Shown here: in pieces, positions 434 through 25,361 of the stretch
How positions within the stretch are numbered: the first letter of the stretch is position 1
Layout: each line of letters begins with the position of its first letter
Origin: Vermamoeba vermiformis
Lineage: Eukaryota
Direction: 5' to 3'
Assembly (NCBI GenBank): GCA_045837725.1
Contig: JBEWZL010000278.1
Coordinates: 62,001-126,000 of the forward strand
DNA length: 64,000 bases
Position numbers and translations under genes: made by a program
Notes under the pieces: model-generated
What the model saw: the letters and a program-made list of their open reading frames with translations, nothing else
Told to the model about the DNA's origin: nothing
Database searches by the model: none

Positions 434-2609
434 ATGAAGAACACCATCCAATTCGAAGATCTTCCCAACAAACTCTGTGAAATTCTGTATTTGTCGAATG
501 AAAATGTGGTAAATTTAAAATCAACAGGTGCTTGGGAACCCACGAACGGCAAACGATTTTATTTCGGTAAGCAAATCCAAACAAAAAAAGAGTAAATTTA
601 AATTAATCTTTACTATCCTTCTAATACTGTTATCACAAACGCCCATATATTAATTATATTTTGGCAATTTTTTAGAGGTCACAGTTATCTCAAAAGGCAC
701 CAAAGGCACGATCGCAATTGGTTTATCAAAGAACGAAAAAGATGCAGCCGACAAGCAACCTGGCTGGACTCACGGTACTTACTTAAGGTCTATATATAAC
801 TTATTGTTAAATTTTTCATTACAGGAACGTTTGGTTATCATGCTGATGACGGCATTGCTTTCTGCGATGATACTGAGGTGATCCGAAACTTTGGTCCCAT
901 ATGGGCAGTTCGAAATGTTACAGTAGGATGTGGTGTTGACTTTGAAGCACGTAAGTACCTCCATGCTGTTTAAAAAAAGTTGAGTGCATCCGTTCGAATT
1001 TAAATTGGCGAGATTGATTGGAGGTATTGGTTCAATTACGCACTAAATATTAGTATACGAGCTAATGTATATTTAGAATCAGTGTTCTTCGTATTTCCCG
1101 ATGGTACGAAGAAAACATTGCCGACGTACAAGATGCAAGCTTTTCCCGACAAGTTGTATCCAATGGTTGGCTTGCACAGCCTGCAAGAACAGATTAAAGT
1201 GAATTTTGGCACCAAAGGAATTCCTTTCGTGCATAATCCATTCGTAAGTAACGCAAAGAAATTTCTGGTACGCGCCATACACATCCGGTTTTTAACTGCT
1301 GATAATTTTTAGGCCGAGAATAAAATACCAACGTTCTTCAAATTCAACAAAACAACAAAAGCAATTCTTGAAGGCAACATACTCACCGTCACAGCGCCAA
1401 AGGCCGAGTCACTTCAAGCTGACTCTTTCTTCCCCCGTCTCACAACATCACTGCCTTATTATGAAGTCACCATACTATCACTAAAACGTAGGTGCCACCT
1501 ACAATATACCATCCAATTATTACCCTATTTGGCGTATTATGAACCTATACTCATACGCGTTTTTCATAGCGGACGAAACGCTTTCGATTGGTTTCAGCGA
1601 CCAAAGATTTGAGTCCAGTCAACTCGTGGGCTCCATGCAGAACTCGTTCGGCTACTTCAACAACGGCACTGTTGGCTTCAACTTCACGAGCGACGGGGAG
1701 CGAGGTGCGTTCAAAGTGAACGACGTGGTTGGATGTGGTCTTGCCATGGACTCGTTCAACCAACGCAAGGTGTTCTATACTGTAAATGGCAAGTTCGTCG
1801 GGTACATAACGAAGAGGGTTGCAGGTGGAATGGATTGCTTCCCAACGCTTGGATTCGTTGGAAGCGACATCCGCGTTCGATACAACTTCGGCCGTTCGGA
1901 ATTTGTTTGGGATATTAACGAATGGCCTAAATCTGACAAGAACTGCTATATTAGCAACTTGCCTACTGAAACTCTGCGAATTATTCTTGAGGTAAGATTC
2001 AGGATCGAGCCACATCCAGCATTTGTACTGACTTATTTTTTTCTTAGCATGCTTCACATACCGCTGCCTTTACCTTACTTAGCGTATCGTTGGTCAACAA
2101 GAAGTTCCATCAGCTCGTGACCGATAACAACGCTATTTGGCACAAACTTTATATGCAACAGTACCCGGATCAGAATCCAAACTTGAAGATGCAAAGTTGG
2201 GCTAAATTCTTCAAAGTACGATATGAAAGGTTTAAAGAGCGACCTGCCGAGCCTGCTATTGGTGCGTAATATTCAGATCCGCTATGTTAATTTTATTGTA
2301 CTGACGTTGGATTTGTTTTCAGAGAATTGCGAATTTGGCTTCAAATGCCCACTATCGTATTATCAATTAGATACAACTGAAGGCGATAGACGACATTGCA
2401 ACAAGTGCGATAAAGACGTCTACGCTGTCACATCCGTTGAACAATTAAAGCAATACGTGCAATTAGGACGATGTGTGGCCCTCGTGCAAGACGATGGCGT
2501 AAGTTTTTTTTTTGCTTTTTAATTTGTATGGTGGTGTTAACTAATAGCCTTGATGCAGTTTGATAGTGAGATGGGTGACATCGACCCTGACTATGGTGAT
2601 GAAGAGTGA
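434..2609 (+). CDS. Multi-exon protein with two SPRY domains, an F-box and a C-terminal Cys-rich domain
   Basis: Spliced translation gives SPRY motifs (YFEVTV..GTIAIGL..PGW..FGYHADDG..VGCGVD; YYEVTI..SIGF..FGYFNNG..DVVGCGL..VFYTVNG..FPTLG..YNFG), an F-box (ISNLPTETLRIILE) and FKCPL..HCNKCDKDVY..GRCVAL. The start codon is uncertain. Confidence 0.8.
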
Positions 2610-2978: not shown

Positions 2979-4673
2979 ATGATGAACGAATTGCAATTGT
3001 TAATAGCGTTTCTTGTTCTTGCGGTTGGTAAGGCATCATTTCTTTATTTTATTATTATCGGACCTCAAAATAATTATTTTAAACAGCAAGTTGTTCGTTG
3101 ATCGAGCAAGATCCAAATTTTGCGAATTTATTCGACACGGATTTTGTCAATTTTGGGACAATATATTCAACTGATTTTATTCGGAAAATTGCCAGCGAAA
3201 GAGGAGCCTCAAGACCTCCAATATTCGACAGTTTCAATGAGCCGAAGATCAGACAACAACTTCGCAACAACGTTCTTCTTCTCATTGATAAAATGCTCTC
3301 GATGCAACAAAACAACATGTCGTAAGTAATTTACTGCATAATTTAGCCACAAACGGCTTGCAATTTTTATTGACACGTGTCACTTGTTTTTTCAGATCCT
3401 GTGCAATTCAACGGCTCAGTGAAGCAAAAGCAATCAGAGATATCTATACAGATGATACGAAATTCAACAACCGGCCTCTGCCGCGATATTATCACGTGAC
3501 ACAACAGAAATGGGTTCCAGCAATCTTGGACTCGATGCTCATAAAGTGGGCCGACGCATTGTTTCCAGGAACATGGTTTGCAACAGGTAAAGCTCAACAA
3601 CAACAAGTGCCTAACGCAAACTTTATTGTAAAACATGTCATATTAGGATTCTACTCGATGCGGAGTCCGCAGAGCTATTCACCGGTTTTTTCGTTCGGCT
3701 CCGAGCTTGAACAACCTTTGAACGAGGTCAGCGATGACAGTCATTATATCTACAGCTATGGTCCTAACAATTATTACGGACTTGGTCGAATGCACAATGG
3801 TACATTGTGAACTTCGTATTGTAATTTGATAACTAGCTAAACATTATTTTTTCAGTGTCAATGTGGAAAAACAACACGGATCTGATCAGTTGGGGTGTCG
3901 AACAGAGATTTGTTGAGAATATAACCAGCTATATCAAATCGCGATACAATGAAGAAAAAGCATCGTTTTTGTTGTCAAAGATGACGAGCATCGATCAAAT
4001 TGTTCTTGAACGACAACTTTTGACCATCGCCCACGCGCACACCAACGATAGGGCCAATGCGTAAGCCTATTTTATTATACTATGATGTAAGTATTAACTT
4101 TATCACTAAAGGTTATTGGCTGGTTCTTTCATCGATTCAAGTTGGACCAAATTGAACATTTCCGTCGCGAACGTTTCTGTTGGACAGAGTACGTATTCTG
4201 CGTTGAGATACAAAGTTTTTGGAACTAACATCGTTTACAATGAAGTTATTATTCGTCCTTACGGGGGCAGCAACATGCAATACGAAATGATTGCTGCAGT
4301 GGACTACAACGGGCAGGAAATGACGTTTTTGAGTTTACATGTCGCGACACGCCAAACTACCGTTAGCACCGCGCCTATCTACGTGCTTGTCAACAAGTAC
4401 GTGCCAGACATGGAAATCAAAGACATGACAGTACTGACACAATTGATCGCTGATGGAGCTCTTCTCGATCAACCTCCACCATCGTACACCAAACTGAAAC
4501 GAAGTGTCAACCAGTTGATGACACGTGTCAAACATGTCACTCTCGAAGAACAACGACACAACGAGATACAATCCCAAAAATATCATCGAATGCTTTGCGA
4601 GTCACCTGAACACCATGCCAAAGCCATCGAGTACCTCCAGCAAAAGTTTGGTCTTCAACACTTGTCGTGTTAA
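2979..4673 (+). CDS. Array gene copy 1: secreted ~445-aa protein with putative ADP-ribosyltransferase-like domain; intact
   Basis: Exons 2979-3027, 3087-3321, 3396-3586, 3647-3799, 3856-4060, 4112-4188, 4246-4673 join in frame via GT-AG introns (1338 nt). Signal peptide MMNELQLLIAFLVLAVASCS. The same structure recurs in five paralogs. Confidence 0.85.
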
Positions 4674-4948: not shown

Positions 4949-6652
4949 ATGCAATTGACATTCATATTTATTTTTCTTGCAATTGGTAAGTTGTCGTTTT
5001 TTTAATTATCCTCACATTAATTTCTTTATTAATTTACTATCGGACCTCAAATTAATTTTATTTTAAACAGCAAGTTGTTCGCTGATCGAGCAAGATCCAA
5101 ATTTTGCGATTTTATTCAAAACAGATTTTGTCAATTCCGGAACAATCTATTCAACTGATTTTATTCGGAAAATTGTCAGCGAAAATGGAGCTTCAAGACC
5201 TCCAATATTCGACAGTTTCAATGAACCGAAGATCAGACAACAACTTCGCAACAACGTTCTTCTTCTCATTGATAAAATGCTCTCAATGCAACAAAACAAT
5301 ATGTCGTAAGTAATTTACTGCATAATTTAGCCACAAACGGCTTGCAAAATGATTTATTTGACACGTGTCACTTTGTAGATCCTGTTCAATTCAACGGCTC
5401 AGTGAAGCAAAGGCAATCAGAGATATCTATATAGATGATGCGAAATTCAATAGCAGGCCTCTGCCACGATATTATCACGTGACAAAACAGACATGGGTTC
5501 CAGCAATCTTGGACTCGATGCTCATAAAGTGGACCGACGCAGCATTTCCTGGCGCGTGGTTTGCAACAGGTAAATCACACCGAAATAGAATCGTTTAATT
5601 TAAAATCCTGTTTTCGTTAGGATTCTACTTGCAGCAAACAGCGAGGTACTATTCACCAGTTTTTTCTTTCGGCTCCGAGCTTGAACAACCTTTGAACGAG
5701 GTCAGCAATGACAGCCATTACATATCTTATTATGGTTCTCGTGATTATTACGGACTTGGTCGAATGCACGACAGTACGTAGTTATCTTCGTTCCATTACT
5801 AGCTAAAAATGACGTTCAGTATCAATGTGGAAAAATAACACGGATCTGATCAGTTGGGGTGTTGAACAGAGATTTGTTGAGAATATAACCAACTATATTA
5901 AGTCGCGATACGACGAAGAAAAAGCATCGTTTTTGTTGTCAAAGATGACGAGCATCGATCAAATTATTCTCGAACGACAACTTTTGACCATCGCTCATGC
6001 GCACACCAGCGATAGGGCCAACGCGTAAGCTTATTATATTATATATTTATATAGTATTAACTTACTTTCTTAGGGTATTGGTGGGTTCCTTCATCGATTC
6101 AAGTTGGAGCAAATTCAACATTTCTGCTGCGAATATGTCAGTCGGACAGAGTACGTATTGTTATAACTTTAAGAGGCTAAATTTAAACGGACTTGCCAAT
6201 CAATTCTATTTGCAGTTATTGTTAGCAGTGCCGGGTTACTGACAGACCTCTATTATGGCATGATTACTTCAGTGGACTACAACAAGAAGAAAATGTCATA
6301 CTTGACGCTGCATATCGCAACGCGTCAAACTGTTTTGAAGACTGAATCCTGGAGCTACTGTTTGATCTTCAATAAGTACGTGCCAGACATGGAGATCAAA
6401 GATATGACAGTACTGACACAATTGATCGCTGATGGAGCTCTTCTCGATCAACCTCCACCATCGTACAACAAACTGAAACGAAGTGTCAACCAGTTGATGA
6501 CACGTGTCAAACATATCACTCTCGAAGAGGAGCGACACAACGAGATACAATCCCAAAAATATCATCAAATGCTTTGCGAGTCACCTGAACACCATGCCAA
6601 AGCCATCGAGTATCTCCAGCAAAACTTTGGTCTCCGACACTTGTCGTGTTAA
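4949..6652 (+). CDS. Array gene copy 2; apparently intact
   Basis: Same 7-exon layout; signal exon MQLTFIFIFLAI; the checked junctions are in frame; ends HLSC-TAA. Confidence 0.85.
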
Positions 6653-6967
6653 AATGACAATAGTTTAGCGATAAATATGTGCCTCAGCGGAACGATTTTA
6701 GTTGGACGCTTTGTCCCTTGTATTGAGTGCCTAAAGTTGGCTTTTGATCGCCTTAGAAAGCGTGTGAACGGTTGAAAATTGTCGTCTTGTGAACAATTTT
6801 TGGCGTTTATGTTTGTCGGGACCCAAATTTAGTCCCGTCCCGTCCCCTCAAAAGTCACCTGGCACGATTTTATTTTATTTCGAAAGATCTTTCTATTGAT
6901 ACACACAGCTGTATAGCGTTGACACTACGCCAAATCATATGAACAATAGGTTCGGCAAGTTATTGTA

Positions 6968-8634
6968 ATGAAATTGACACTCATATTTATTTTTCTTGCA
7001 ATTGGTAAGTTGTCGTTTTTTTAATTATCCTCAAATTAATTGTTATTTTTTAAACAGCAAGTTGTTCGCTGATCGAGCAAGATCCAAATTTTGCGAATTT
7101 ATTCGACACAGATTTTGTCAATTCTGGAGCAAAGTATTCAACTGATTTTATTCGGAAAATTACGAGCGAAATTGGAGCTTCAAGACCTCCAATATTCGAC
7201 AATTTCAACGATCCAGAGATCAGACAACAACTTCGCAACAACGTAATTATTCTCATTGATAAAATGCTTTCAATGCAACAAAACAATATGTCGTAAGTAT
7301 TATACAGTGTAAATTAGCCACAAACGCTTGTAAAATAATTTTTATTTGACACTTTTTGTAGATCCTGTGCAATTCAACGCCTCAGTGAAGCAAAGGCAAT
7401 CAGAGATATCTATATAGATGATGCGAAATTCAATAGCAGGCCTCTGCCACGATATTATCACGTGACACAACAGAAATGGGTTCCAGCAATCTTGGACTCG
7501 ATGCTCATAAAGTGGGCCAACGCATTGTTTCCCGGAACATGGTTTGCAACAGGTAAAGCTCAACAACAACAAGTGCCTAAGGCAAACTTTATAGTAAAAC
7601 ATGTCCTATTAGGATTCTACGCGATCCTGAGTCCACAGAGCTATTCACCGGTTTTTTCGTTCGGCTCCGAGCTTGAACAACCGCTGACCGAGGTCAGCGA
7701 TGATAGCCACTATATCTATAGGTATGGTTTTCGTGATTATTACGGCCTTGGTCGAATGCACGACGGTACGTAGTTATCTTCGTATAATAATAACAAGTTA
7801 AAAATGATTTTCAGTGTCAATGTGGAAAAACAACACGGATCTGATCAGTTGGGGTGTTGAACAGAGATTTGTTGAGAATATAACCAGCTATATCAAATCA
7901 CAATATGACGAAGAAAAAGCGTCGTTTTTGTTGTCAAAGATGACGAGCATCGATCAAATTGTTCTCGAACGACAACTTTTGACCATCGCTCATGCGCACA
8001 CCAACGATAGGGCCAATGCGTAATAATATTATAATATGGTATATGTATGGTATTAACTTGCTTTCTTAGGGTATTGGTGGGTTCCTTCATTGATTCAAGT
8101 TGGACCGAATTGAACATTTCCACTGCGAATATTTCTGTTGGACAGAGTAAGTATTTATCAGAAGGTAAATTGTGACTTTCTAATCGATTCTATTCGCAGT
8201 TATTGTTCGCGGTACCGGGTTAATGACAGACCTCTATTATGGCATGAACTTCAGTGGACTACAACAAGAAGAAAATATCATTCTTGACGCTGCATCTTGC
8301 AACGCATCAAACTGTTTTGAAGACTGAACCCTGGCGCTACAATTTGATCTTCAACAAGTACGTGCCAGACATGGAGATCAAAGATATGACAGTACTGACA
8401 CAATTGATCGCTGATGGAGCTCTTCTCGATCAACCTCCACCATCGAACACCAAACTAAAACGAAGTGTCAACCAGTTGATGACACGTGTCAAACATGTCA
8501 CTCTCGAAGAACAGCAACACAATGAGATACAATCCCAAAAATATCATCGAATGCTTTGCGAGTCACCTGAACACCATGCCAAAGCCATCGAGTACCTCCA
8601 GCAAAACTTCGGTTTTCAACACTTGTCGTGTTAA
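6968..8634 (+). pseudogene. Array gene copy 3 with a 2-nt deletion in the last exon (pseudogene or assembly error)
   Basis: GGCATGAACTTCAGTG at 8241 versus GGCATGATTACTTCAGTG in copy 2; the shifted frame stops at 8325-8327. Confidence 0.7.
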
Positions 8635-9354
8635 AATGACAATAGTTTACCGCTAATAAATATTAGCCTTAGCGACAACGATTTTCTTCGTGACCCCTTG
8701 TTAACGGACGTCCCTTGTATATAATTATAAGCATTGTATAAGTCTCACTTTGCAACAACCCAACCCCCACAACCCCTTTTTGTTCATTTTTTTATAATTT
8801 AGGAGGCGCAGACGTGCGCGAGCGCAACATCCGCACTAACAAAAATTGTGACAGGGACAACACCATACGGTGAAGCCCAACCGATGTCGCACTCCGAGTG
8901 CAAGAGGAGCGCAACGACCGACCTAGAGATGCCTTCTTGATCACATCTCTACTGTCCAGGTAAGTATGAACTATCCAGGTGTTGTTTTTGCTTTTTTGTG
9001 CTTGATCCGGGATAAATATTTTGTGGGATTGGTTGCACGTTGCAAACAGGGGCTTAGAAAAGTACGGACGTACGATGACTATGCAAGAGAAGAAAATCTT
9101 TTTTTGCATGGCTAGATGATGCTAAGAAAAGTTACAACGTGCAAAGCGATCCCCGCTCAGGGGCCTACTTTTTTCTCGAATGCTAAGAAACAGCATAACG
9201 ACCAGGCAGGCTGTAGTTACTATTGCCAGATCGGCGTCGTTGAACGACTTTGTGCTGCGGCAGTCATGTAAATAAAGAAGAAAGGACCGTCGGAGATTCG
9301 GAGATAAATTTATTTATTTAGGGTTAGGGTTAGAAATTTGCTTTTTGGTTTCTT

Positions 9355-11751
9355 CTACTTTTTCGCGTTTCCCTTGGACCCTTTTGCTGCTTTTCTCTTC
9401 GCTCGTTGTTCTTTCACACGTGCCTTGCGTTCAGCTTCTTTGTCTAATATGACTTGTCGTCTGCGTTGGCGCAACACATTCGGTCTGTTGTACGCTGCCG
9501 GAGCATCTCCGTCAAAGAAATCTCCCTCATGATATTTATCAAATTTAACTACTACGCCGTAAAAGACTTCAGAGGCATGATCATTAGCAACAAATTTTCC
9601 GTAGGAACTCTTCAGTTTCGGATCTGTCAAAAAAAGTTAGCTTACTCGATCACGTGATCTTCTTCCAAATAAGGCAATAATGGCTTAACGTACCTTTAGG
9701 TTGTTTATAAGTCACTATTTTCTCCGCGGTAATCGTTGCAACGGCCATACAATTCTCACCTAAAATAGCCTAATTAGGATACTGTCTGACATTACCGAAT
9801 GAAAGTCACGCGATAATTATTCCGCTGTAGCCTATCGATCGCAAAAAAAATATTCACTTTACTTACCAGGATAGACTTGATCCACAAAATTGACTTTTCC
9901 TTCCTTGATCTCGAATAATAGGTGAATATGAATATACCTCTTTAATCCTAATATGTAAATCTCGTTCTCGAAATGATTTCGCAAGGTATTTTGTAAGACA
10001 GCAATTGACACCAAACAATTTCCTGGACGAGATCCGACACTCGGATAATAAGTCAGAGAACTGGAACTGTCCATGGTGTAATAAACAGGGTCATTTGGCT
10101 TGAGTGGGTGCACCCATGGCATGTACGGCATAATCGGACATTTAATGTGCGAAACCGGGCTTTCTTGGACTCCCGCTGGAAAAAATGAAAAAATCGTTAA
10201 TTTTTACCAACAAAGCACCAAAGTGGACTATTACAAAGATCAAGCGAAAAAAATTGCAAATTTCAATTTAGTGAGCTAGCTTGCGCTATTAAATGTGGTA
10301 AATTTTCATAAATGATCGAGTTGTGATCTAGTTCGATCCGCGTCTGTATGTTAAAGAGTCCTAGTTACCAGGACAAATTTTTCAGAACTACTACGTACCG
10401 ACAGTCATGCACAACTGCGTGACTCGTTCTTCGTAGCGAAGGTAATCAGGTTTCGCGAGTGCTTGGCGCAGTGTGAGTGGTGGCAAGAACTGATTTGATT
10501 GGCCAATCAACTCTTTCAGTGTCGGACCTTTGTACCATTCGACCATCTATTGTCCGCAATAACGCGTTAGTGAAACACGCTGAAAATAGCCGTTCAGTGA
10601 AACAGCAAACTGTCGAAAATATTGTTGGCGGTTACGAAATTTGATGCAAAAGTTTAGCTTCATGCACGAATTTTCAACGAGGTTGATCGTTGTCATTACT
10701 ATATTTGGCAATGAGCACGTGGCAACGGTCAAAAAGTCATTTGTAAGTTAATTTTGGGGGCAAGTCCGAGTTACTTTGAAACGCATATTTTTCCCCTTAG
10801 CAAATGTCTTACTGTCCAAAAAAGGTTATACTTGCCTTATTAGTCTTTGGCGAGTATTTTTTAGGCAGTGGAATGGTCTTGAAGTGCTGGAAGTTGCGGC
10901 CCAAGACAATTTGCGCGACGTTTTCAATGTCTGCTTTGAACCGCTCGTACGCTAAAAAAGGAGCATTAGATCCGAATTTCCAAATAAGGAAAAACATTTC
11001 AAATCAAATAATAGTCAACGAAATGATATTTCAAATGAATTTTTACCTTTTTTGTCCGCTTCGTTGTTATTCACTTCCGTGTAACAAGCAATAATATTAG
11101 GACTGCCCATCGCAATGTAAGCATTCGTGATCACTCGCTGCCAGTCCCAATTCGAAAAATATGGAGGATTTGGCATGGTGCTCGGCGAAGTATATGTATC
11201 AGATCGTACCATGATTAACGTGCAGGAAGCCTACGAAAAAATGGATTCGGGATTAGCTGATCTGAATGTTTTCGCAGAAGACAAAACGGTTGATCGTACG
11301 AAGCATAATTTTGAAAGCTCTTTGATAGTGCCATGTCCCACAAGGACATCCAATAAAAGCATTTCTGAATCTGCAAAATGAAATCCGTTACAAAAAATAA
11401 TCATGATTTTTAATAATTAAATAATTATTTATTTGGTGCTCGCTGGACTCAAAATACGAAGAATTTCCAACAAATTGAGCTCGAAATTAATTAATTACCT
11501 GTTAATGTTCCTGAATTTAAGAATGCATCTCCATATCTGTGCACTCTGCCAACGATAAAATGATTTCGTTTAGCACTTAGTAGTGCTAAATATATGTGTT
11601 CAAAGCCTTTACAGCTGCGCAAGCAATTTAAAATTGCGCTAACGCTCAAGTAGGGAAAGATCTCCACCCAAAGCTCGATTGGAAGGATACTCCGCGCTAG
11701 ATTGGCCAGCGATTTTTCTTTACTGTCTAATTCTAGCGTGTTGTGCTCCAT
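9355..11751 (-). CDS. F-box protein fused to a degenerate eEF1A/EF-Tu-like (pseudo-GTPase) body, ~471 aa, 8 exons
   Basis: Exons 11751-11499, 11370-11300, 11230-11047, 10951-10836, 10546-10399, 10175-9867, 9759-9694, 9623-9355 are phase-compatible (1416 nt). F-box ILPIELWVEIFPYL; eEF1A-like segments MVEWYKGPTL and YGKFVANDHASEVFYGVVVKFDK; Lys-rich tail. Confidence 0.75.
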
Positions 11752-15634: not shown

Positions 15635-17508
15635 TCAACACGACAAATGTTGAAGACCAAAGTTTTGCTGGAGGTACTCGATGGCTTTGGCATGGTGTTC
15701 AGGTGACTCACAAAGCATTCGATGATATTTTTGGGATTGCATCTCATTGTGTCGCTGTTCTTCGAGAGTGACATGTTTGACACGTGTCATCAACTGGTTG
15801 ACACTTCGTTTCAGTTTGGTGTTCGATGGTGGAGGTTGATCGAGAAGAGCTCCATCAGCGATCAATTGTGTCAGTACTGTCATGTCTTTGATTTCCATGT
15901 CTGGCACGTACTTGTTGAAGATTATCAAACTGCTCCTTAAGGATGCAGTATTCAAAACAGTTTGACGTGTTGCGATATGCAGGGTCAAGAATGATATTTT
16001 CTCCTTGATTGAGTCCACTGAAGTAATCATGCCATAATACATGTCTGGTGTAAACCCGGCACCACCGCTAACAATAACTGCGAATAGAATCGATTAGAAA
16101 GTCACAATTTCGCTTCTTATAACCATACGTACTCTGTCCGACTGAAATATTCGCAGCAGATTTGTGCGATTTGGTCCAACTTGAATCGATGAAAGAACCA
16201 GCCAATAACCTTTAGAAAGTAAATTAGTACTTATATTCAGTAATCTGTTGCTTACGCGTTGGCCCTATCGTTGGTGTGTGCATGAGCGATGGTCAAAAGT
16301 TGTCGTTCAAGAACAATTTGATCGATGCTCGTCATCTTTGACAACAAAAACGATGCTTTTTCTTCGTCATATCGCGACTTGATGTAATTGGTTATATTCT
16401 TGACAAATTCTTGCTCGACACCCCAACTGATCAGATCCGTGTTGTTTTTCCACATTGATACTGAAAATCATTTTTAGCCTGTTATCAAATTATTATACGA
16501 AGATAACTACATACTGTCGTGCATTCGACCAAGTCCGTAATAATCACGAAAGCCATAATAAGCGATGTAATGGCTTTCATTGCTGACCTCATTCAGAGGT
16601 TGTTCAAGCTCGGAGCCGAAAGAAAATACTGGCGAATAGCTTTTTGCTTTGAACTGCAAGTAGAATCCTAACGAAAACAGGATTTTAAATTAACCGATTC
16701 TATTTTGGTGTGATTTACCTGTTGCAAACCATGCGCCAGGAAACAATGCGTCGGTCCACTTTATGAGCATCGAGTCCAAGATTGCTGGAACCCATGTCCG
16801 GTTTGTCACGTGATAATATCGTGGCAGAGGCCGGCCGTTGAATTTCGCATCATCAATATAGATATCTCTGATTGCCTTTGCTTCACTGAGGCGTTGATTT
16901 GCACAGGATCTGACAAAAAGTAACACGTCAAATAAAATTGGATTTGAACGCGTTTGTGGCTAAATTACGCAGTAAATTACTTACGACATATTGTTTTGCT
17001 GCATCGAGAGCATTTTATCAATGAGAAGAAGAACGTTGTTGCGAAGTTGTTGTCTGATCTTCGGCTCATTGAAACTATCGAATATTGGAGGTCTTGAAGC
17101 TCCGCTTTCGCTGGCAATTTTCCGAATAAAATCAGTTGAATAGATTGTTCCAGAATCGACGAAATCCGTGTCGAATAAATTAGCAAAATTTGGATCTTGC
17201 TCGATCAGCGAACAACTTGCTGTTTAAAATAAAATTAATTTGAGGTCCTATAATAATAAAATAAAATTACAATAATTATATTATTAACCAAATAATTGTT
17301 AAGTTAACTACGACAAATTTTGCAAATTTATTGGCAAGCATAGGAATAACAGCTTGCCTGAATGGCGAATGAAGGAGCGTACGGTCGCATGAAAAAATTA
17401 GTAAATTTAATTTACGTTGAGCATTAAAACTGAAATCGAGAATAATGTGAGGATAATTAAAAACAACTTACCAATTGCAAGAAAAATAAATATGAATGTC
17501 AATCGCAT
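15635..17508 (-). CDS. Array gene copy 4; apparently intact, with enlarged intron 1
   Basis: Signal exon MRLTFIFIFLAI at 17508; the checked exons are in frame; ends HLSC-TGA. Confidence 0.85.
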
Positions 17509-18145: not shown

Positions 18146-19801
18146 TTAACACAACAACTGTCGAAGACCGAAGTTTTGCTGGAGATACTCGATGGCTTTG
18201 GCATGGTGTTCAGGTGACTCACAAAGCATTCGATGATATTTTTGGGACATGTTTGACACGTGTCATCAACTGATTGACACTTCGATTCAGTTTGGTGTTC
18301 GATGGTGGAGGTTGATCGAGAAGAGCTCCATCAGCGATCAATTGTGTCAGTACTGTCATATCTTTGATCTCCATGTCTGGCACGTACTTGTCGAAGATAA
18401 AATTGTAGCTCCAGGGTTCAGTCTTCAAAACAGTTTGACGCGTTGCAAGATGCAGCGTCATGAATGATATTTCCTGTTGCTTGTTGTCCACGGAAGTAAT
18501 CATGCCATAATAGAGGTCTGACATAAACTTGGCACCTCCAACAATAACTGCGAATAGAATCGATTGGCAACTCGCACTTTAACTTTCGCTTATAAGTTAT
18601 AACAATACGTACTCTGTCCGATTGACATATTCGAGTAGAAATGTTGAATTCACTCCAATTTGAATCGATGAAGGAACCCACCAATACCCTAGTAAAGTAA
18701 GTTAATACTCTATTTATATCATTTTATAATATTATTACGCGTTGGCCCTATCGTTGGTGTGTGCATGAGCGATGGTCAAAAGTTGTCGTTCAAGAACAAT
18801 TTGATCGATGCTCGTCATCTTTGACAACAAAAACGATGCTTTTTCTTCGTCATATCGCAACTTAATGTAGTTGGTGATATCCTTGACAAAGTCTTGCTGG
18901 ACACCCCAACTGATCAGATCCGTGTTGTTTTTCCACATCGATACTGAACATCATTTTTAGCTAATTATCTAATTATTATACGAGTTCACAACGTACCATT
19001 GTGCACTCGACCAAGTCCGAAGTGAGTACGAGGACCATAGTAAGTGGCGTAATGGCTGTCATTGCTGACCTCGGTCAGCGGTTGTTCAAGCTCGGAGCCG
19101 AACGAAAAAACCGGTGAATAGCTCTGTGGACTCAGGATCGCGTAGAATCCTAATAGGAAATGTTTTACTATAAAGTTTGCGTTAGGCACTTGTTGTTGTT
19201 GAGCTTTACCTGTTGCAAACCATGCGCCAGGAAACAATGCGTCGGACCACTTTATGAGCATCGAGTCCAAGATTGCTGGAACCCATTTCTGTTTCGTCAC
19301 GTGATAATATCGTGGCAGAGACCGTGCTGTTGAATTTCGCATCATCGATGTAGATATCTCTGATTGCCTTTGCTTCACTGAGGCGTTGAATTGCACAGGA
19401 TCTGCTCGTGTAAAAAAAAATTGCTTCGCAAGTGGTTTGTGGCTAAATTACGCAGTAAAGTACTTACGACATATTGTTTTGTTGCATCGAGAGCATTTTA
19501 TCAATGAGAAGAAGAACGTTGTTGCGAAGTTGTTGTCTGATCTTCGGCTCATTGAAACTGTCGAATATTGGAGGTCTTGAAGCTCCATTTTCGCTGGCAA
19601 TTTTCCGAATAAAATCAGTTGAATAGATTGTCCCAGAATTGACGAAATCTGTGTCGAATAAATTCGCAAAATTTGGATCTTGCTCGATCAACGAACAACT
19701 TGCTGTTTAAAATAATTATTTTGAGGTCCGATAATAATAAAATAAAGAAATGATTACTTACCAACCGCAAGAAACACAATTATCAATTTCAATTCGTTCA
19801 T
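18146..19801 (-). pseudogene. Array gene copy 5; pseudogene with three frame-disrupting lesions
   Basis: +1 insertion near 19324 (exon 3), 1-nt deletion near 18632 (exon 6) and a 35-nt deletion near 18247 removing TLEEQRHNEMQ relative to copy 4. Confidence 0.85.
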
Positions 19802-20198: not shown

Positions 20199-21890
20199 TC
20201 AACACGACAAGTGTTGAAAACCAAACTTTTGCTGGAGGTACTCGATGGTTTTGGCATGGTGTTCAGGTGACTCGCAAAGCATTCGATGATATTTTTGGGA
20301 TTGCATCTCGTTGTGTCGCTGTTCTTCGAGAGTGACATGTTTGACACGTGTCATCAACTGGTTGACACTTCGTTTCAGTTTGGTGTACGATGGTGGAGGT
20401 TGATCGAGAAGAGCTCCATCAGCGATCAATTGTGTCAGTACTGTCATATCTTTGATTTCCATGTCTGGCACGTACTTGTTGACGAACACGTATCTCAAGC
20501 TAATCAGTGTGGTGCGAACGGTAGTTTGACGCGTTGCGACGTGTAATCTCATAATCGTCATTTCCTGCCGCTTGTAGTCCACTGCAGCAATCATTTCGTA
20601 TGGCATGTAGGTCAGCGCGGAAGCGCGCAAGAGGACTAATTACATAGTAAATAAGCCAGATGCAAAAAACCTATTTCAAGACGTACTCTGTCCAACAGAA
20701 ATGTTCGCGACGGAAATGTTCAATTTGGTCCAACTTGAATCGATGAACGAACCCACCAATAACCTTTTAGTGATAAAGTTGATAATTACATCATAGTATA
20801 ATATAATAAGCTTACGCGTTGGCCCTATCGTTGGTGTGCGCATGAGCGATGGTCAAAAGTTGTCGTTCAAGAACAATTTGGTCAATGCTCGTCATCTTTG
20901 ACAACAAAAACGATGCTTTTTCTTCATTGTATCGCGATTTGATATAGCTGGTTATATTCTCAACAAATCTCTGTTCGACACCCCAACTGATCAGATCCGT
21001 GTTGTTTTTCCACATTGACACTGAAAAAATTATGTTTAGCTAGTTATCAAATTACAATACGAAGTTCACAATGTACCATTGTGCATTCGACCAAGTCCGA
21101 AGTGACTACGAGGACCATACAGCGAGGTATAATGGCTGTCATTGCTGACCTCGGTCAGCGGTTGTTCAAGCTCGGAGCCGAACGAAAAAACTGGCGAATA
21201 GCTCTGTGGACTCCGTATTAAGTAGAATCCTATATGCCACCTGTCAATAAAGCTAGTATTAATTATTTTTGTGCCGTACCAGTTGCAAACCACGCGCCAG
21301 GAAATGCTGCGTTGGGCCCACTTTATGAGCATCGAGTCCAAGATTGCTGGAACCCATTTCTGTTGTGTCACGTGATAATATCGCGGCAGAGACCGTCTGT
21401 TGAATTGCGCATCATCTGTATAGATATCTCTGATTGCCTTTGCTTCACTGAGCCGTTGAATTGCACAGGATCTACGAAAAGTGACACGTCAAATAAAATT
21501 GTCAATAAAAATTGCTTCGCAAGTGGTTTGTGGCTAAGTTACGTTGTAAAATACTTACGATATATTGTTTTGTTGATTTGATAGCATTTTATCAATGAGA
21601 AGAAGAACGTTGTTGCGAAGTTGTTGTCTGATCTTCGGCTCATTGAAACTGTCGAATATTGGAGGTCTTGAAGCTCCATTTTCGCTGGCAATTTTCCGAA
21701 TAAAATCAGTTGAATAGATTGTTCCAGAATTGACAAAATCTGTGTCGAATAAATTCGCAAAATTTGGATCTTGCTCGATCAACGAACAACTTGCTGTTTA
21801 AAATAATTATTTTGGTCCGATAATAATAAAATAAAGAAATGATGACTTACCAACCGCAAGAAACGCTATTATCAATTTCAATTCGTTCAT
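20199..21890 (-). CDS. Array gene copy 6; one +1 C in exon 3 (homopolymer error, pseudogene, or rescued by intron retention)
   Basis: Signal exon MNELKLIIAFLAV; TGGGCCCAACGC near 21316 versus TGGGCCAACGC in copy 3; the other checked exons are intact. Confidence 0.7.
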
Positions 21891-22478: not shown

Positions 22479-25361
22479 TTATTGTGGCACGTTAGCAGCA
22501 GGGTATCCGTTTGGATAGTAAGGGTATTGTTGGGTGGGTACCATGTGGGGTGGGTAGTTCGGATGCGGTTGACCTGGCTGTGGGTAACCTTGCATGTACG
22601 GATTGCTATTGTAAGGCATCGGTTGGCCATATACATTAGGTGGCATGCCGTAGTAGCCTTGCGGCGGGTAATAACCTTGGTGTGGTTGTGGCACGAAATT
22701 TCCGTATTGTTGCTGGACTGTCACGTGTTGCGGTGGGTACATCGGCTGTTGAGGAGGATAAGCTGCCATATGGCCTGGTGTAAACGGCTGTGCTTGGACA
22801 AGGTTGGCGTTTAGCTTTGCCGATTGAGGTCCGAACGTGATTGGCTGCATTGGCGAGGGAGCTGAAGTCGTGCCATTGGCTTGCTTCGACACGCCGCTGA
22901 TCGTCTTGACAGGTGTCGGCTCGAGTTCAATTTTAGCGCTGTTATTAACCTTCTCGGGGACTACTTGAGACACGGGTTGGACGACAGGTTGGGCTACTTG
23001 AGGCTGAGCAGATTGTTGCACGCCGTTCGGCTGCGCAGTACTAGCAGGCTTTTGTTGTGTGGCAGCACTGCCATTCTCCGGCAATTGTTGTTCACCAATC
23101 GCTTGAACAGGCTTGGCAACAGCACCAGTAGTCGTTTGAGCTGCCTTAGCTGTGCTATTCGGCTGAGCGACTTGAGAAGTCTGTTGCTGTTCCACAGGCT
23201 TCTCTGTGTTATTTTGAGTAGGCTGGGCAGTTGTGTTCGGTGTAGGGCTTTGAACGGCCTGTTGTTTCTCTTTGAACTTTTGTAAACCGACCCAAACAGG
23301 TGGAGGCGCCATCGGCTTCTTAGGCTGGGCTGTTTCAACGGGTTTTTCTTCCTTCTCTTGCTGTTTCGATGCTGAAGGCTGCTTAGGCTTCTCTTGTTGA
23401 CTATTTTGATGGCCTTGCGTGCCCTTCTTGGGGGCAGCTTTGGGAGCACCAGATTGTTTGGGCTGTGCCTTTGGTGCTTCTTTAGCTGGCGCGGGCGTTG
23501 CGGTCTCGGCAGGTTTGACTGGCTCGACTGGTTTAGCCTTGGCCATCGCTAAAATCTGCGCGTAAGACATCTTCGTCATGCCCTTGCTTTGAGTCAAAGG
23601 ATTGGCTTGTTGGTCACTTGTACTAGTCTCAGTCTTTGTAACTTCGGGCTTAACTTCAGGTGTACTCTCTGGCGTTTGAGTATCTTGCTGTACTTCGTTT
23701 GTAGCATCATTTTCGGTGACCTCGTTAGCAAGCTCGGGATTTTCGGCGATTTCTTCGCCTTCCTTGGGAGGCTCGACTTTGGGCTTCGGAGGCTCCGAGA
23801 ACTTTTGTGCCCAATTGACTGGCTTGCCCCACACACTTGGTGGCGGTGCAACTTCGTCACGTGGCTTTGGTGATGTTCGGACAGGCTAAATTTAGAAAGG
23901 TTAGGGTCAGTTTTCGTCAAAAGCGAGTGATGACTTTTGCAGAATTTTTCTAGTCATGCAGAAAATAAATAAACTAAATATTATTATTAACATACTGCAG
24001 GTGCCGGCTGTCGGTTAGCTCTGTTATCGTTACGTCGTTTTTTCTTCGACTTGACGTCCTGAAATCCCGGTGACTCGGGATCGCACGCGTTAACATTTTC
24101 TTCATTCAACATGTACGCCATTTGTCTATCTTCCTCCTCCATATCTAAACAACAATATTATTACTATATAATGATAATAGTATAATATCGAATTGGTACG
24201 TACTTGCAAGTTCATGCAGCCACAAATCATAGCCAACATTTTGGTACGCGAATTCTTTCTCGTTTTTAGGCTCGTTCAATACTTCAGCCACTAAATCGAC
24301 CACAAGTTCTATTTAAAATAGCATTAGGACTATATTAAAAGAAAATAATATCGATATTGCCTTACCTTGACAAAAGATTAAATAATCCATTTGTTTCTTA
24401 GTATATACAAGGTCGTAATGGTTGCCGTACGAGTAGCATAATTTAATTTGGTTCTTAAATCCGTTGTCTATCGGCGGAATTTCACCGTTGGAATGGATCT
24501 CGAAGTTTACTCTGAAAAAAAAATTAGAAATTTTGTAACGCGTTGGATCTCGCCAGTAAATCATACTTATACAAAAGCGATAACGCCTGAAGCTCTATTT
24601 GACCGCCCCAACAGATGTCCTAATAAAGAAATTAGTATTCGTTCGAGGTAAGTTTTTCGGATGTGGATCTGGTCTTACCAAACTCATAGCATGAAGATAA
24701 TCGTCGAATGTCTGGCCATCAGGCAATGCAACGAAATCTTGAAAGTCTTGGCGGTTTTGACGCAAGTATTCAACGCACTCTAAGCGCACTTTTCGGTGCA
24801 TGACTTGAGTTGCGTAAATGGATTCAGCAATGGCGCGAAACTAAAAGCAAATAATTATAAGCATTAATATTTGTGGCTTATTAAATATAATAGCACGAAT
24901 ATACGAGGGATTAGATTCAAATGCTACCCCAAAATGAAAAGACAATTTGCGATCGCGAACAGAAAATTGTTAGTCAATTCTTTAATTACAAATACAACCA
25001 TAAAATAATGTATTTGCTTATATTAAAGCATCTCAAGTCTTGCAATTAATTATAAGAATTATTCAGTATTAATTTCCGGCCTCATCCATTTTTTATATTC
25101 TTCAGTATTTTTAAATATTCAATAAAAGCTTACCAAACAAGCACCATCCTTAGGCATTTGTTTTCTAACCAATCCTAACGAGTCTAACTTCGCATCCAAA
25201 ATCAAGATCTCGTCGTCTTCATTTTGTTTTGCTGCGGGCTGGCCCGCTGAAGGTATAGAAACATTATTAGGCTCTATAACTGTTTCTATTGTGAATTCAG
25301 AGTTAGTTTGGCCAATAGGCTTTTTGTTGGCTCGCTTCTGCGGTTGCTTTCTTCGACTCAT
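22479..25361 (-). CDS. OTU-family deubiquitinase with long Q/P/Y-rich low-complexity C-terminus
   Basis: Catalytic motifs MPKDGACLFRAIA and LCYSYGNHYDLV across exons; final 451-aa ORF rich in P/Q/Y. Confidence 0.88.

Follow-up and report, generated by a model that had tools for sequence, protein, structure and literature searches.

A spliced, conserved gene joining an F-box-like domain to an EF1A-like core: a probable lineage-restricted SCF substrate receptor

F-box proteins serve as substrate receptors of SCF ubiquitin ligases and carry WD40, LRR or other C-terminal modules, and the specificity of an F-box protein comes from the module behind its F-box. Translational GTPases have their own precedent for use as a scaffold in yeast Ski7, a translational-GTPase paralogue turned adaptor. 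Within the window, the whole stretch of 64,000 nucleotides of DNA that was analyzed, a single spliced, conserved gene of eight exons on the minus strand (11751..9355, 471 codons) encodes an F-box-like domain followed by a module with an EF1A-like core. The protein is probably an SCF substrate receptor restricted to its lineage, with a binding module that derives from EF1A and is dead as a GTPase. A preliminary description of this DNA had regarded the architecture as undescribed. In agreement with this, full-text literature searches listed no fusion or other combination of an F-box with an EF1A-like protein, and the protein collections held no family name, the source names of family members, where given, being only "hypothetical protein."

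The gene model has 1416 nt, all of its intron phases fit, and its one stop is at the end. Intron 4 has GC-AG ends, and the other six have GT-AG ends. The exons are given below, with a slash marking the cut in splice site sequences and paired coordinates marking joints; X1 is a run of a close relative, with contigs that are 95-99% alike and an RNA nature that is a guess.

11499 to 11751, minus strand: exon 1; ORF from the start codon at 11751-11749, 84 codons plus 1 nt, phase 1; donor G/GTAATT; joint 11499/11370 in an X1 contig
11300 to 11370, minus strand: exon 2; phase 1 to 0; acceptor TTTTGCAG/, donor TTC/GTACGA; 5' joint in X1, joint to exon 3 without read coverage
11047 to 11230, minus strand: exon 3; splice sites; joint 11047/10951 in X1; homologous exon in the orthologous contig L200 and in P0008
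10836 to 10951, minus strand: exon 4; donor AAG/GCAAGT, followed by the GC-AG intron
10399 to 10546, minus strand: exon 5; starts MVEWYKGPTL; joints 10546/10836 and 10399/10175 in X1; P0006 96% identical
9867 to 10175, minus strand: exon 6; joints in X1; P0001, P0004, P0005 and P0007 43-63% identical
9694 to 9759, minus strand: exon 7; both joints in X1; covered by P0001 and P0004
9355 to 9623, minus strand: exon 8; stop codon 9357-9355; joint 9623/9694 in X1; P0001 66% and P0002 64% identical

The joints of introns 1, 3, 4, 5, 6, and 7 were present at the exact model coordinates in X1 contigs that contain no introns. The joint of intron 2 lies outside X1 coverage, and its basis is the continuity of the frame together with the equal position of the intron in L200, which also contains exon 2 with an identical donor position. 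The eight-exon gene of the preliminary description was thus upheld by its fitting phases, its single terminal stop, and six of seven joints, and all of the peptides quoted there are in the translation. The joint across intron 4 (10836/10546) was detected in an X1 contig, with ends CT..GC on the plus strand, and the sequence of P0001 at this junction is ..STNKNVEWYKGPTL. An ORF that lies within intron 4 and shares the frame of exon 5 was considered as a missing exon; this X1 joint and P0001 place it inside the intron.

The gene appears to be expressed and is selectively maintained under purifying selection. Among the differences listed between X1 and the locus on this stretch, all 23 were exonic, 17 of them synonymous and 6 non-synonymous, for a rough dN/dS of ∼0.1 (306 synonymous and 1107 non-synonymous sites). 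No RNA data set was found to carry the window's own sequence. Three sets of raw RNA reads (X7 to X9) provided only 9 to 12 reads each, which matched a conserved stretch of 40 nt at 90-95%, and translation by hand of their loose ends gave ..TTAGVTES.., which is P0001-like. Judging from this sequence, these reads are taken to represent an orthologue of another organism, not the 11751..9355 locus.

P0001 (322 aa, from an ORF of a 1193-nt contig) runs colinear with the protein and shares 62.4% identity with it over residues 149-471. Exon-sized homologues were found in several other organisms, with protein identities of 43-74% per exon and open frames, and seven of the eight matches in an exhaustive phmmer search were exon-sized pieces of the same family in other assemblies. 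The exon-1 homologues P0010 to P0012 are 64-69% identical and L200 is 64% identical; the latter contains the F-box exon and exons 2 and 3, with identical intron positions and phases. The family occurs in only a few organisms, which are related. A word-based search with P0001 returned only P0001 itself among 865 candidates, no relative emerged when metagenomes were scanned with P0001 alone, and the ESM Atlas contained no related cluster or family (best score, 0.81). Within the window, no paralogue was detected by tblastn or with an exon-1 HMM.

These results bear on the possibility that the locus is a decaying eEF1A pseudogene, or an artefact that joins unrelated ORFs, with the F-box and the later exons belonging to separate genes. 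Such an explanation could draw on the missing G motifs described below, on the intron 2 joint that is unseen in reads, and on the guess that X1 is RNA. However, it is countered by the six splice joints that intron-less contigs reproduce exactly, by the excess of synonymous differences among those listed, and by the per-exon protein identity and open frames in several lineages. Furthermore, L200 has the F-box exon followed by exons 2 and 3, and X1 joins the exon-1 donor to exon 2. A pseudogene or artefact is therefore largely refuted and extremely improbable.

The preliminary description had proposed an F-box, and the domain was recovered in exon 1.

11596 to 11688, minus strand: F-box-like domain, exon-1 residues 22-52; Pfam PF12937, E 2.1e-5, 24.7 bits

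The score is just above the PF12937 gathering cut-off of 24.3 bits, and PF00646 matched the same F-box with an E value of 0.0047. All four exon-1 homologues had an F-box-like match at E<=0.01; three homologues were below the score of the window's F-box, and the best score of P0012 was 19.3 bits. The core residues of the F-box, LxxELWxEIFxxL..CLRxCK, are invariant in five of five sequences. An AF2 model of exon 1 built with five sequences (mean pLDDT, 51.1) contained low-confidence helices at residues 25-31, 37-46, and 50-72. By analogy with other F-box proteins, Skp1 of an SCF ubiquitin ligase should be the docking partner of the F-box (residues ∼22-52), and the remaining ∼400 residues should be a substrate- or partner-binding module; we infer membership in SCF on this basis.

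The same protein might instead have a role outside SCF, for example as a regulator, Skp1-binding or Skp1-independent, by which a partner of eEF1A is sequestered, with its basic tail used for RNA or ribosome binding. An F-box score just at the Pfam threshold, with three homologues lower, would be compatible with such a role, as would the strongly basic and helical tail. However, the invariance of the F-box core residues is expected of a Skp1 interface that is in use, and no data point toward a function outside SCF, which we consider very doubtful.

The similarity of the putative receptor module to EF1A is concentrated in the following features.

10493 to 11113, minus strand: EF1A-like core, residues 148-226; encoded by the last part of exon 3, the whole of exon 4, and the first part of exon 5
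10517 to 10537, minus strand: WYKGPTL heptapeptide, residues 212-218

In profile comparisons residues 148-226 are significantly EF1A-like and colinear with EF1A. The stretch runs from GSPNIIACYTEVN to WYKGPTL..LPP, and in EF1A its counterpart stretches between the G4 strand position and the WYKGPTLLEALD..PP linker; introns 3 and 4 fall inside the stretch. The heptapeptide can be read directly in the translation and was aligned to the WYKGPTL of EF1A in several comparisons. When the piece 149-235 was compared by hhalign with 32 archaeal EF1A-type sequences, the match (template 141-221) had a Prob of 93% and a P of 3.1e-7, and the score of the core was reached by none of 60 column permutations. 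An independent hhalign run of alignment A2 against A5 gave a Prob of 69.8% (P 4.1e-5), the comparison with eukaryote-type eEF1A gave 67% (P 5.1e-5), and the longer alignment Q148-412/T140-428 gave 86% (P 4.9e-6); the whole-length Prob values of 67-86% are below the usual bar of 95%, and the family profile is thin (Neff ∼1.4). The piece 149-208, from which the WYKGPTL motif is excluded, was matched at the colinear place with a P of 0.032.

In an unbiased search of the PDB, the top match of P0001 was EF-1alpha (1jny; E 0.092). An EF1A HMM scored 13.4 bits on P0001 (E 1.3e-6, in one comparison) and only 3.2 bits on the window's own protein. The EF1A match was lost when the A2 profile (273 profile positions) was compared with the PDB, the top matches then being mS27, PsaE, and mS44 (E ∼0.4-0.5). 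There was no similarity to EFL (P 0.58). Most of the EF1A signal comes from ∼80 residues.

The preliminary description had proposed that the whole protein behind the F-box is colinear with eEF1A. This was borne out for the block from the G4 position to WYKGPTL and, weakly, for the C-terminal hairpin described below, whereas its alignments of G1 (NHFIVGRVH) and G3 (DVLVGHG..ASCTLIMV) were no better than chance in profile comparison. The N-terminal piece 56-148 matched EF1A with P values of only 0.12-0.23, and when more sequences were added its best match shifted to the domain II motif VGRVETG. The piece 86-150, which contains the proposed G3, was matched elsewhere (P 0.23), and the domain II region 236-362 and the exon 6 piece were matched at the wrong place in EF1A (P 0.1). 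No GTP_EFTU, D2, or D3 Pfam domain was found in any of the eight exons or in P0001 at E<=10. The AF2 model of P0001 had a mean pLDDT of 38.5 and a pTM of 0.22, values too low for a usable fold. When single exons were compared with the PDB, exon 6 matched no structure, and the PsaE-like hairpins matched weakly by exon 8 (E at least 0.37) are taken to reflect a resemblance between beta-hairpins and not kinship.

It is possible, though unlikely, that the C-terminal domain of this F-box protein is in essence new and specific to its lineage, with a likeness to EF1A that is limited to ∼80 residues. The segment would then have been captured from an EF1A gene as a fragment, or would be a motif that arose by convergence or chance, and the rest, the conserved PGNC..HFENEIY..YIHIHLL block included, would not be derived from EF1A. 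Consistent with this explanation, significance is reached only in residues 148-226, and the pieces 56-148, 236-362, and 300-365 had P values of 0.09-0.25, often at non-colinear places. The lack of a Pfam EF-Tu domain and of an ESM Atlas cluster also speaks for it, as do the His and Cys residues of the most conserved block, which have no counterpart in EF1A. However, the length and order of the protein fit a whole EF1A, with 416 residues after the F-box compared to 420-460 for EF1A. In addition, greedy hhalign was colinear over Q56-413/T4-429, blastp against eukaryote-type eEF1A returned three colinear HSPs, and the end of the protein repeatedly selected the C-terminus of EF1A.

9535 to 9603, minus strand: YGKFVANDHASEVFYGVVVKFDK, candidate last beta-hairpin of EF1A domain III, residues 390-412

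For the pieces 363-420, 300-415, and 318-415, the best local hhalign match was always EF1A 403-431 (P 0.013-0.095), a place chosen among ∼430 positions with three target alignments. The score of this hairpin (YGKFVANDH..VVVKFDK) was reached by 1 of 60 permutations, and its blastp HSPs were weak and colinear. Thus, descent of the receptor module from EF1A over its full length may be suspected from length, order, and the hairpin. The fusion of an F-box with EF1A that had been proposed stands in outline (an F-box, an EF1A-derived core, one spliced frame, and no G motifs).

When the model and five homologues (P0001, P0008, and P0010-12) were scanned by regex, neither a P-loop nor DxxG nor NKxD was found, so that the earlier observation of broken G1, G3, and G4 motifs holds. 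The earlier term "pseudo-GTPase" is appropriate insofar as the G motifs are missing; its implication that the N-terminal piece is a remnant of the first half of a G domain found no statistical support. Because the P-loop, DxxG, and NKxD are all missing, the protein is not expected to work as a GTPase and would have to act as a binding scaffold. In the favored SCF receptor, the central part of the module would come from an EF-1alpha gene, taking in the G4-strand position with the helix behind it, the G5 position, WYKGPTL, and the linker that leads to domain II. The last domain is probably of EF-1alpha descent too, and the module without G motifs would form a binding scaffold that ends in a long basic helix.

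9358 to 9531, minus strand: basic C-terminal tail, residues 414-471; 18 K+R, 8 D+E, pI 10.8

The equivalent of this tail in P0001 (residues 279-321) is the only confident element of the AF2 model, a long helix with a pLDDT of 65-92. Conservation in the family peaks in a block of exon 6 (RPGNCLVSIAVLQNTLRNHFENEIY..G.KRYIHIHLLFE), with invariant columns from R307 to L344. The His and Cys residues of its invariant PGNC..HFENEIY..YIHIHLL block are without a counterpart motif in EF1A. A cupin-like reading of GLKRYIHIHLLFE (G-x5-HxH-x3-E) was rejected, as the Glu is replaced in two of five homologues (K in P0004 and R in P0007), and there was no Pfam match to cupin.

A more specific proposal, which we regard as quite doubtful, is that the SCF receptor is an eEF1A mimic that docks where eEF1A docks and brings the ubiquitin ligase there. 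Its docking site might then be the exchange factor eEF1B, the place on the ribosome where factors bind, or another eEF1A client, and the His/Cys block (PGNC..HFENE..YIHIH) might represent a binding or metal site that arose anew on what was once the domain III scaffold. If this were true, a small eukaryotic clade would regulate or police its translation machinery via a factor-shaped E3 adaptor. The two roles suggested in the preliminary description, a decoy for pathogen effectors that target eEF1A and a ribosome quality-control factor, are speculative.

If the most abundant translation factor has been recycled as a receptor module, this type of receptor would be new and would show clearly how a GTPase can become a scaffold. 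It would also hint at a connection, so far unexplored, of ubiquitination with the partners of translation factors. The occurrence in a few related organisms makes the proposal testable but limits its breadth, and its significance would be smaller if the likeness to EF1A were limited to the 80-residue core.

Compared to EF-1alpha, the protein is colinearly similar between the G4-strand position and the PP linker, WYKGPTL(L)E..D included, and it has a similar overall length, a lysine-rich C-terminal end, and a weak colinear match to the last hairpin of domain III. In contrast to EF-1alpha, it has an F-box in front and is without G motifs, Pfam EF-Tu domains, or similarity to the EFL branch, and in the greedy alignment it has ∼40 residues fewer between the putative first strand and the G4 position. 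Compared to F-box proteins, it has the same arrangement, with an F-box-like domain at the N-terminus and a larger module behind it; here, however, that module matches no Pfam family, and EF1A is its sole detectable relative.

The gene encoding the F-box/EF1A-like protein was modeled from stop-to-stop ORFs and direct reading of the sequence as eight exons on the minus strand, from 11751 to 9355.

Exons of the F-box/EF1A-like gene
11751-11499, minus strand, exon 1
11370-11300, minus strand, exon 2
11230-11047, minus strand, exon 3
10951-10836, minus strand, exon 4
10546-10399, minus strand, exon 5
10175-9867, minus strand, exon 6
9759-9694, minus strand, exon 7
9623-9355, minus strand, exon 8

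The joined exons form a 1416-nt frame with one stop, at its end (471 residues), and the introns, of 69 to 289 nt, have GT-AG borders in six cases and a GC donor in intron 4. Because eight exons fit in phase with a single terminal stop, the coordinates and exon count of the preliminary description are right. The telomere-type hexamer TTAGGG is present in two and a half copies (ttagggttagggttag) at 9318-9335 on the plus strand (CCCTAA on the strand of the gene), ∼20 nt downstream of the stop codon, in what is presumably the 3' untranslated region.

The window is eukaryotic DNA of ∼40% G+C, and the locus is surrounded by ordinary eukaryotic genes (SPRY, phosphoesterase, aspartyl protease, myosin head, protein kinase, and a PCI/Rpn9-type gene). 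Neither tRNA genes nor a paralogue of the gene were found in the window. Of a two-part gene family, the window has three or more copies, distributed over the two strands (3292-4673, 6173-7773, 15635-16093, 18986-19447, 20199-20639, and 21066-21488), with one part reading ..RSCAIQRLSEAKAIRDIY..PRYYHVTQQKWVPAILDSMLIKW.. and the other ..DMEIKDMTVLTQLIADGALLDQPPPSY..HHAKAIEYLQQ.FGL.HLSC; neither of the two ORFs scanned had a Pfam match. Long low-complexity ORFs rich in Pro, Gln, Thr, and Ser at 22479-23885 (minus strand, 468 aa) and 52737-55661 (minus strand, 974 aa) lie in regions with a G+C of 0.48-0.52, compared to about 0.40 elsewhere in the window.

None of the runs on record as RNA contains the 11751-9355 stretch. 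Contigs from one run (X1), which are 95-99% alike to the window and thus derive from a close relative, cover exons only and lack six of the seven introns to the exact base (joints 11499/11370, 11047/10951, 10836/10546, 10399/10175, 9867/9759, and 9694/9623). At 10836/10546 the missing segment ends in CT..GC on the plus strand, as a GC-AG intron does. With six introns absent at exact bases, cDNA origin is the simplest explanation. These joints, which include that of exons 1 and 2, support the proposal that one gene spans the F-box and the downstream exons; the exon 2/3 joint (11300/11230) falls in a gap in X1 coverage and is predicted from the continuous frame and from L200, an orthologous contig from a metagenome. 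In L200 the F-box exon is accompanied by an exon 2 with the same ..CF/GTACGA donor and an exon 3 starting ASCTL.., in the phases of the model (1, 0, and 1). All 23 differences from the X1 contigs listed on this stretch are exonic, with 17 synonymous and 6 non-synonymous changes for 306 and 1107 sites of the respective kind in the coding sequence. The resulting dN/dS, near 0.1, is a rough estimate because X1 coverage is partial, and it is far from that of a decaying gene.

Among longer proteins, a word-based search with exon 6 matched only P0001, a 322-aa ‘hypothetical protein’ from a 1193-nt contig, which is colinear with the model from late exon 3 to exon 8 (62.4% identity). P0001 is continuous over junctions 3/4 to 7/8 and is therefore a spliced form. 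An exhaustive phmmer search with P0001 of 1.84 billion representatives gave eight matches at E≤1e-3, none of them EF1A, and seven were exon-sized ORFs of the same family. These were P0002 (exon 8), P0003 and P0008 (exons 3-4, intron read through), P0004 (exons 6-7), P0005 and P0007 (exon 6), and P0006 (exon 5, 96% to the window). The remaining match, P0009, is a bacterial repeat protein without relation to the family. Four homologues match exon 1, namely P0010-P0012 (64-69% identity) and L200. Identity to the window ranges from 43 to 74% exon by exon, and source names, where given, are ‘hypothetical protein’. The family is thus small and limited to a few related organisms. Raw RNA-seq reads of another organism (X7-X9) match only window positions 10114-10153 (40 nt, 90-95%); their loose ends diverge from the window, and hand translation gave ..TTAGVTES.., like P0001, which suggests transcription and splicing of a P0001-type orthologue in that organism.

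The proposed N-terminal F-box was confirmed. Residues 22-52 of exon 1 matched Pfam F-box-like (E 2.1e-5; 24.7 bits versus a cut-off of 24.3) and F-box (E 0.0047), F-box-like was matched at E≤0.01 in all four exon 1 sequences scanned, and the LxxELWVEIFPxL..CLRxCK core is invariant in five of five sequences. The AF2 model of exon 1 was of low confidence (mean pLDDT, 51.1). Elsewhere in the window, an ORF at 1485-2120 (plus strand) has a SPRY domain (E 8.8e-7) and then ..ISNLPTETLRIILE.., F-box-like by eye, and may be a second F-box-type gene.

In open searches, exons 2-8 and P0001 had no Pfam match even at E≤10, the single exons searched (6 and 8) had no EF1A match in PDB, and no related entry was found in the ESM Atlas. 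The best match of P0001 among 177,635 PDB sequences was Sulfolobus EF-1alpha (1jny; E 0.092), with residues 20-85 aligned to chain positions 162-227, the WYKGPTL region. The AF2 model of P0001 (mean pLDDT, 38.5) was confident only in a C-terminal helix.

Directed tests employed an EF1A reference set of 32 ORFs of 400-450 aa collected with a typed P-loop pattern (aEF1A N terminus in 24) and, from viral_contigs, three eukaryote-type eEF1A (L120-L122, canonical) with eight eEF1A-like sequences with insertions. A further 22 sequences, most but not all with an EFL-type N terminus, were set apart as an EFL-like group. Among the viral_contigs entries L123-L154, many contigs labelled as giant virus carry eEF1A-like or EFL-like genes that lack introns (459-484 aa). 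The family alignment for hhalign comprised the model, P0001, and five trimmed fragments (Neff 1.4).

Directed comparisons with EF1A (Q, query positions; T, template positions)
aEF1A HMM, P0001: 13.4 bits, E 1.3e-6 for one comparison, HMM 143-214
aEF1A HMM, window's model: 3.2 bits, E 0.0015
hhalign, family and aEF1A: Prob 86%, P 4.9e-6, Q148-412/T140-428
hhalign, piece 149-235: Prob 93%, P 3.1e-7, T141-221
hhalign, piece 149-208 (WYKGPTL excluded): P 0.032, T141-176, right place
hhalign, piece 363-420: P 0.013, T404-428, EF1A C terminus
hhalign, piece 56-148: P 0.23
hhalign, piece 236-362: P 0.1, non-colinear place
hhalign, domain III pieces 300-415 and 318-415: P 0.026-0.095, EF1A 403-431 each time
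hhalign, family and eukaryote-type eEF1A: Prob 67%, P 5.1e-5
hhalign, family and EFL-like group: P 0.58
hhalign, separate run, alignments A2 and A5: Prob 69.8%, P 4.1e-5
blastp, P0001 and L120: 61% over 18 residues, E 7.6e-5, plus two weak colinear HSPs

The greedy hhalign alignment to aEF1A was colinear (Q56-413/T4-429). Scores as high as the observed one arose from column permutations in none of 60 trials for residues 56-471 or for 149-235, in 1 of 60 for 363-420, and in 3 of 60 for 149-208. Colinearity with eEF1A, as originally claimed for all that follows the F-box, is supported for 149-235 and weakly, at the EF1A C terminus, for 363-420; it has no statistical support for 56-148 or 236-362. 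The alignments previously proposed for G1 and G3 are likewise without statistical support, although they may still be right. With the window alone, NHFIVGRVH matched the first strand, which precedes the P-loop, and the P-loop itself was deleted in the alignment (P 0.23); with L200 and P0010-P0012 added, VGRVETG in domain II became the best match (P 0.12). Piece 86-150, which contains the proposed G3, matched elsewhere (P 0.23). It is very likely that the central ∼80 residues descended from EF1A, and full-length descent, including domain III, is on balance probable; the N-terminal 90 residues may share this origin.

No GTPase motif is intact, as had been noted: [AG]xxxxGK[ST] and [NT]KxD are absent from the model, P0001, P0008, and P0010-P0012, and DxxG and GK[ST] are absent from the model. 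Judged from these motifs, the protein, whatever its ancestry, cannot bind GTP in the EF1A manner. Two defining features of translational GTPases were tested and not found, and the model is therefore not a member of that class.

The best-supported reading is that the protein would serve as an SCF-type substrate receptor, in which the F-box would bind Skp1 and the remainder would bind the target, the binding module being a putative EF1A derivative, GTPase-dead and ending in a helical tail of basic character (18 K+R in 58 residues; pI 10.8). The SCF step and scaffold role are inferred from the F-box family. The most conserved part of the family, RPGNCLVSIAV.QNTLRNHFENEIY..G.KRYIHIHLL in exon 6, is probably the functional surface. 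The earlier observation is confirmed in part and its interpretation supported in part: the F-box and an EF1A-like core lacking G motifs stand, and the G1 and G3 alignments have no statistical support; a decoy or a ribosome quality-control role, also put forward there, is speculation. Full-text literature searches brought up no description of an EF1A-like module joined to an F-box, in agreement with the preliminary description; by title and abstract beginning, the matches listed only mention the two together, in studies of plants, QTL, or cancer. Ski7, an EF1A-family paralogue that has lost catalysis, provides a precedent. F-box proteins themselves are known; the new part is the putative EF1A-derived receptor module on an F-box protein.
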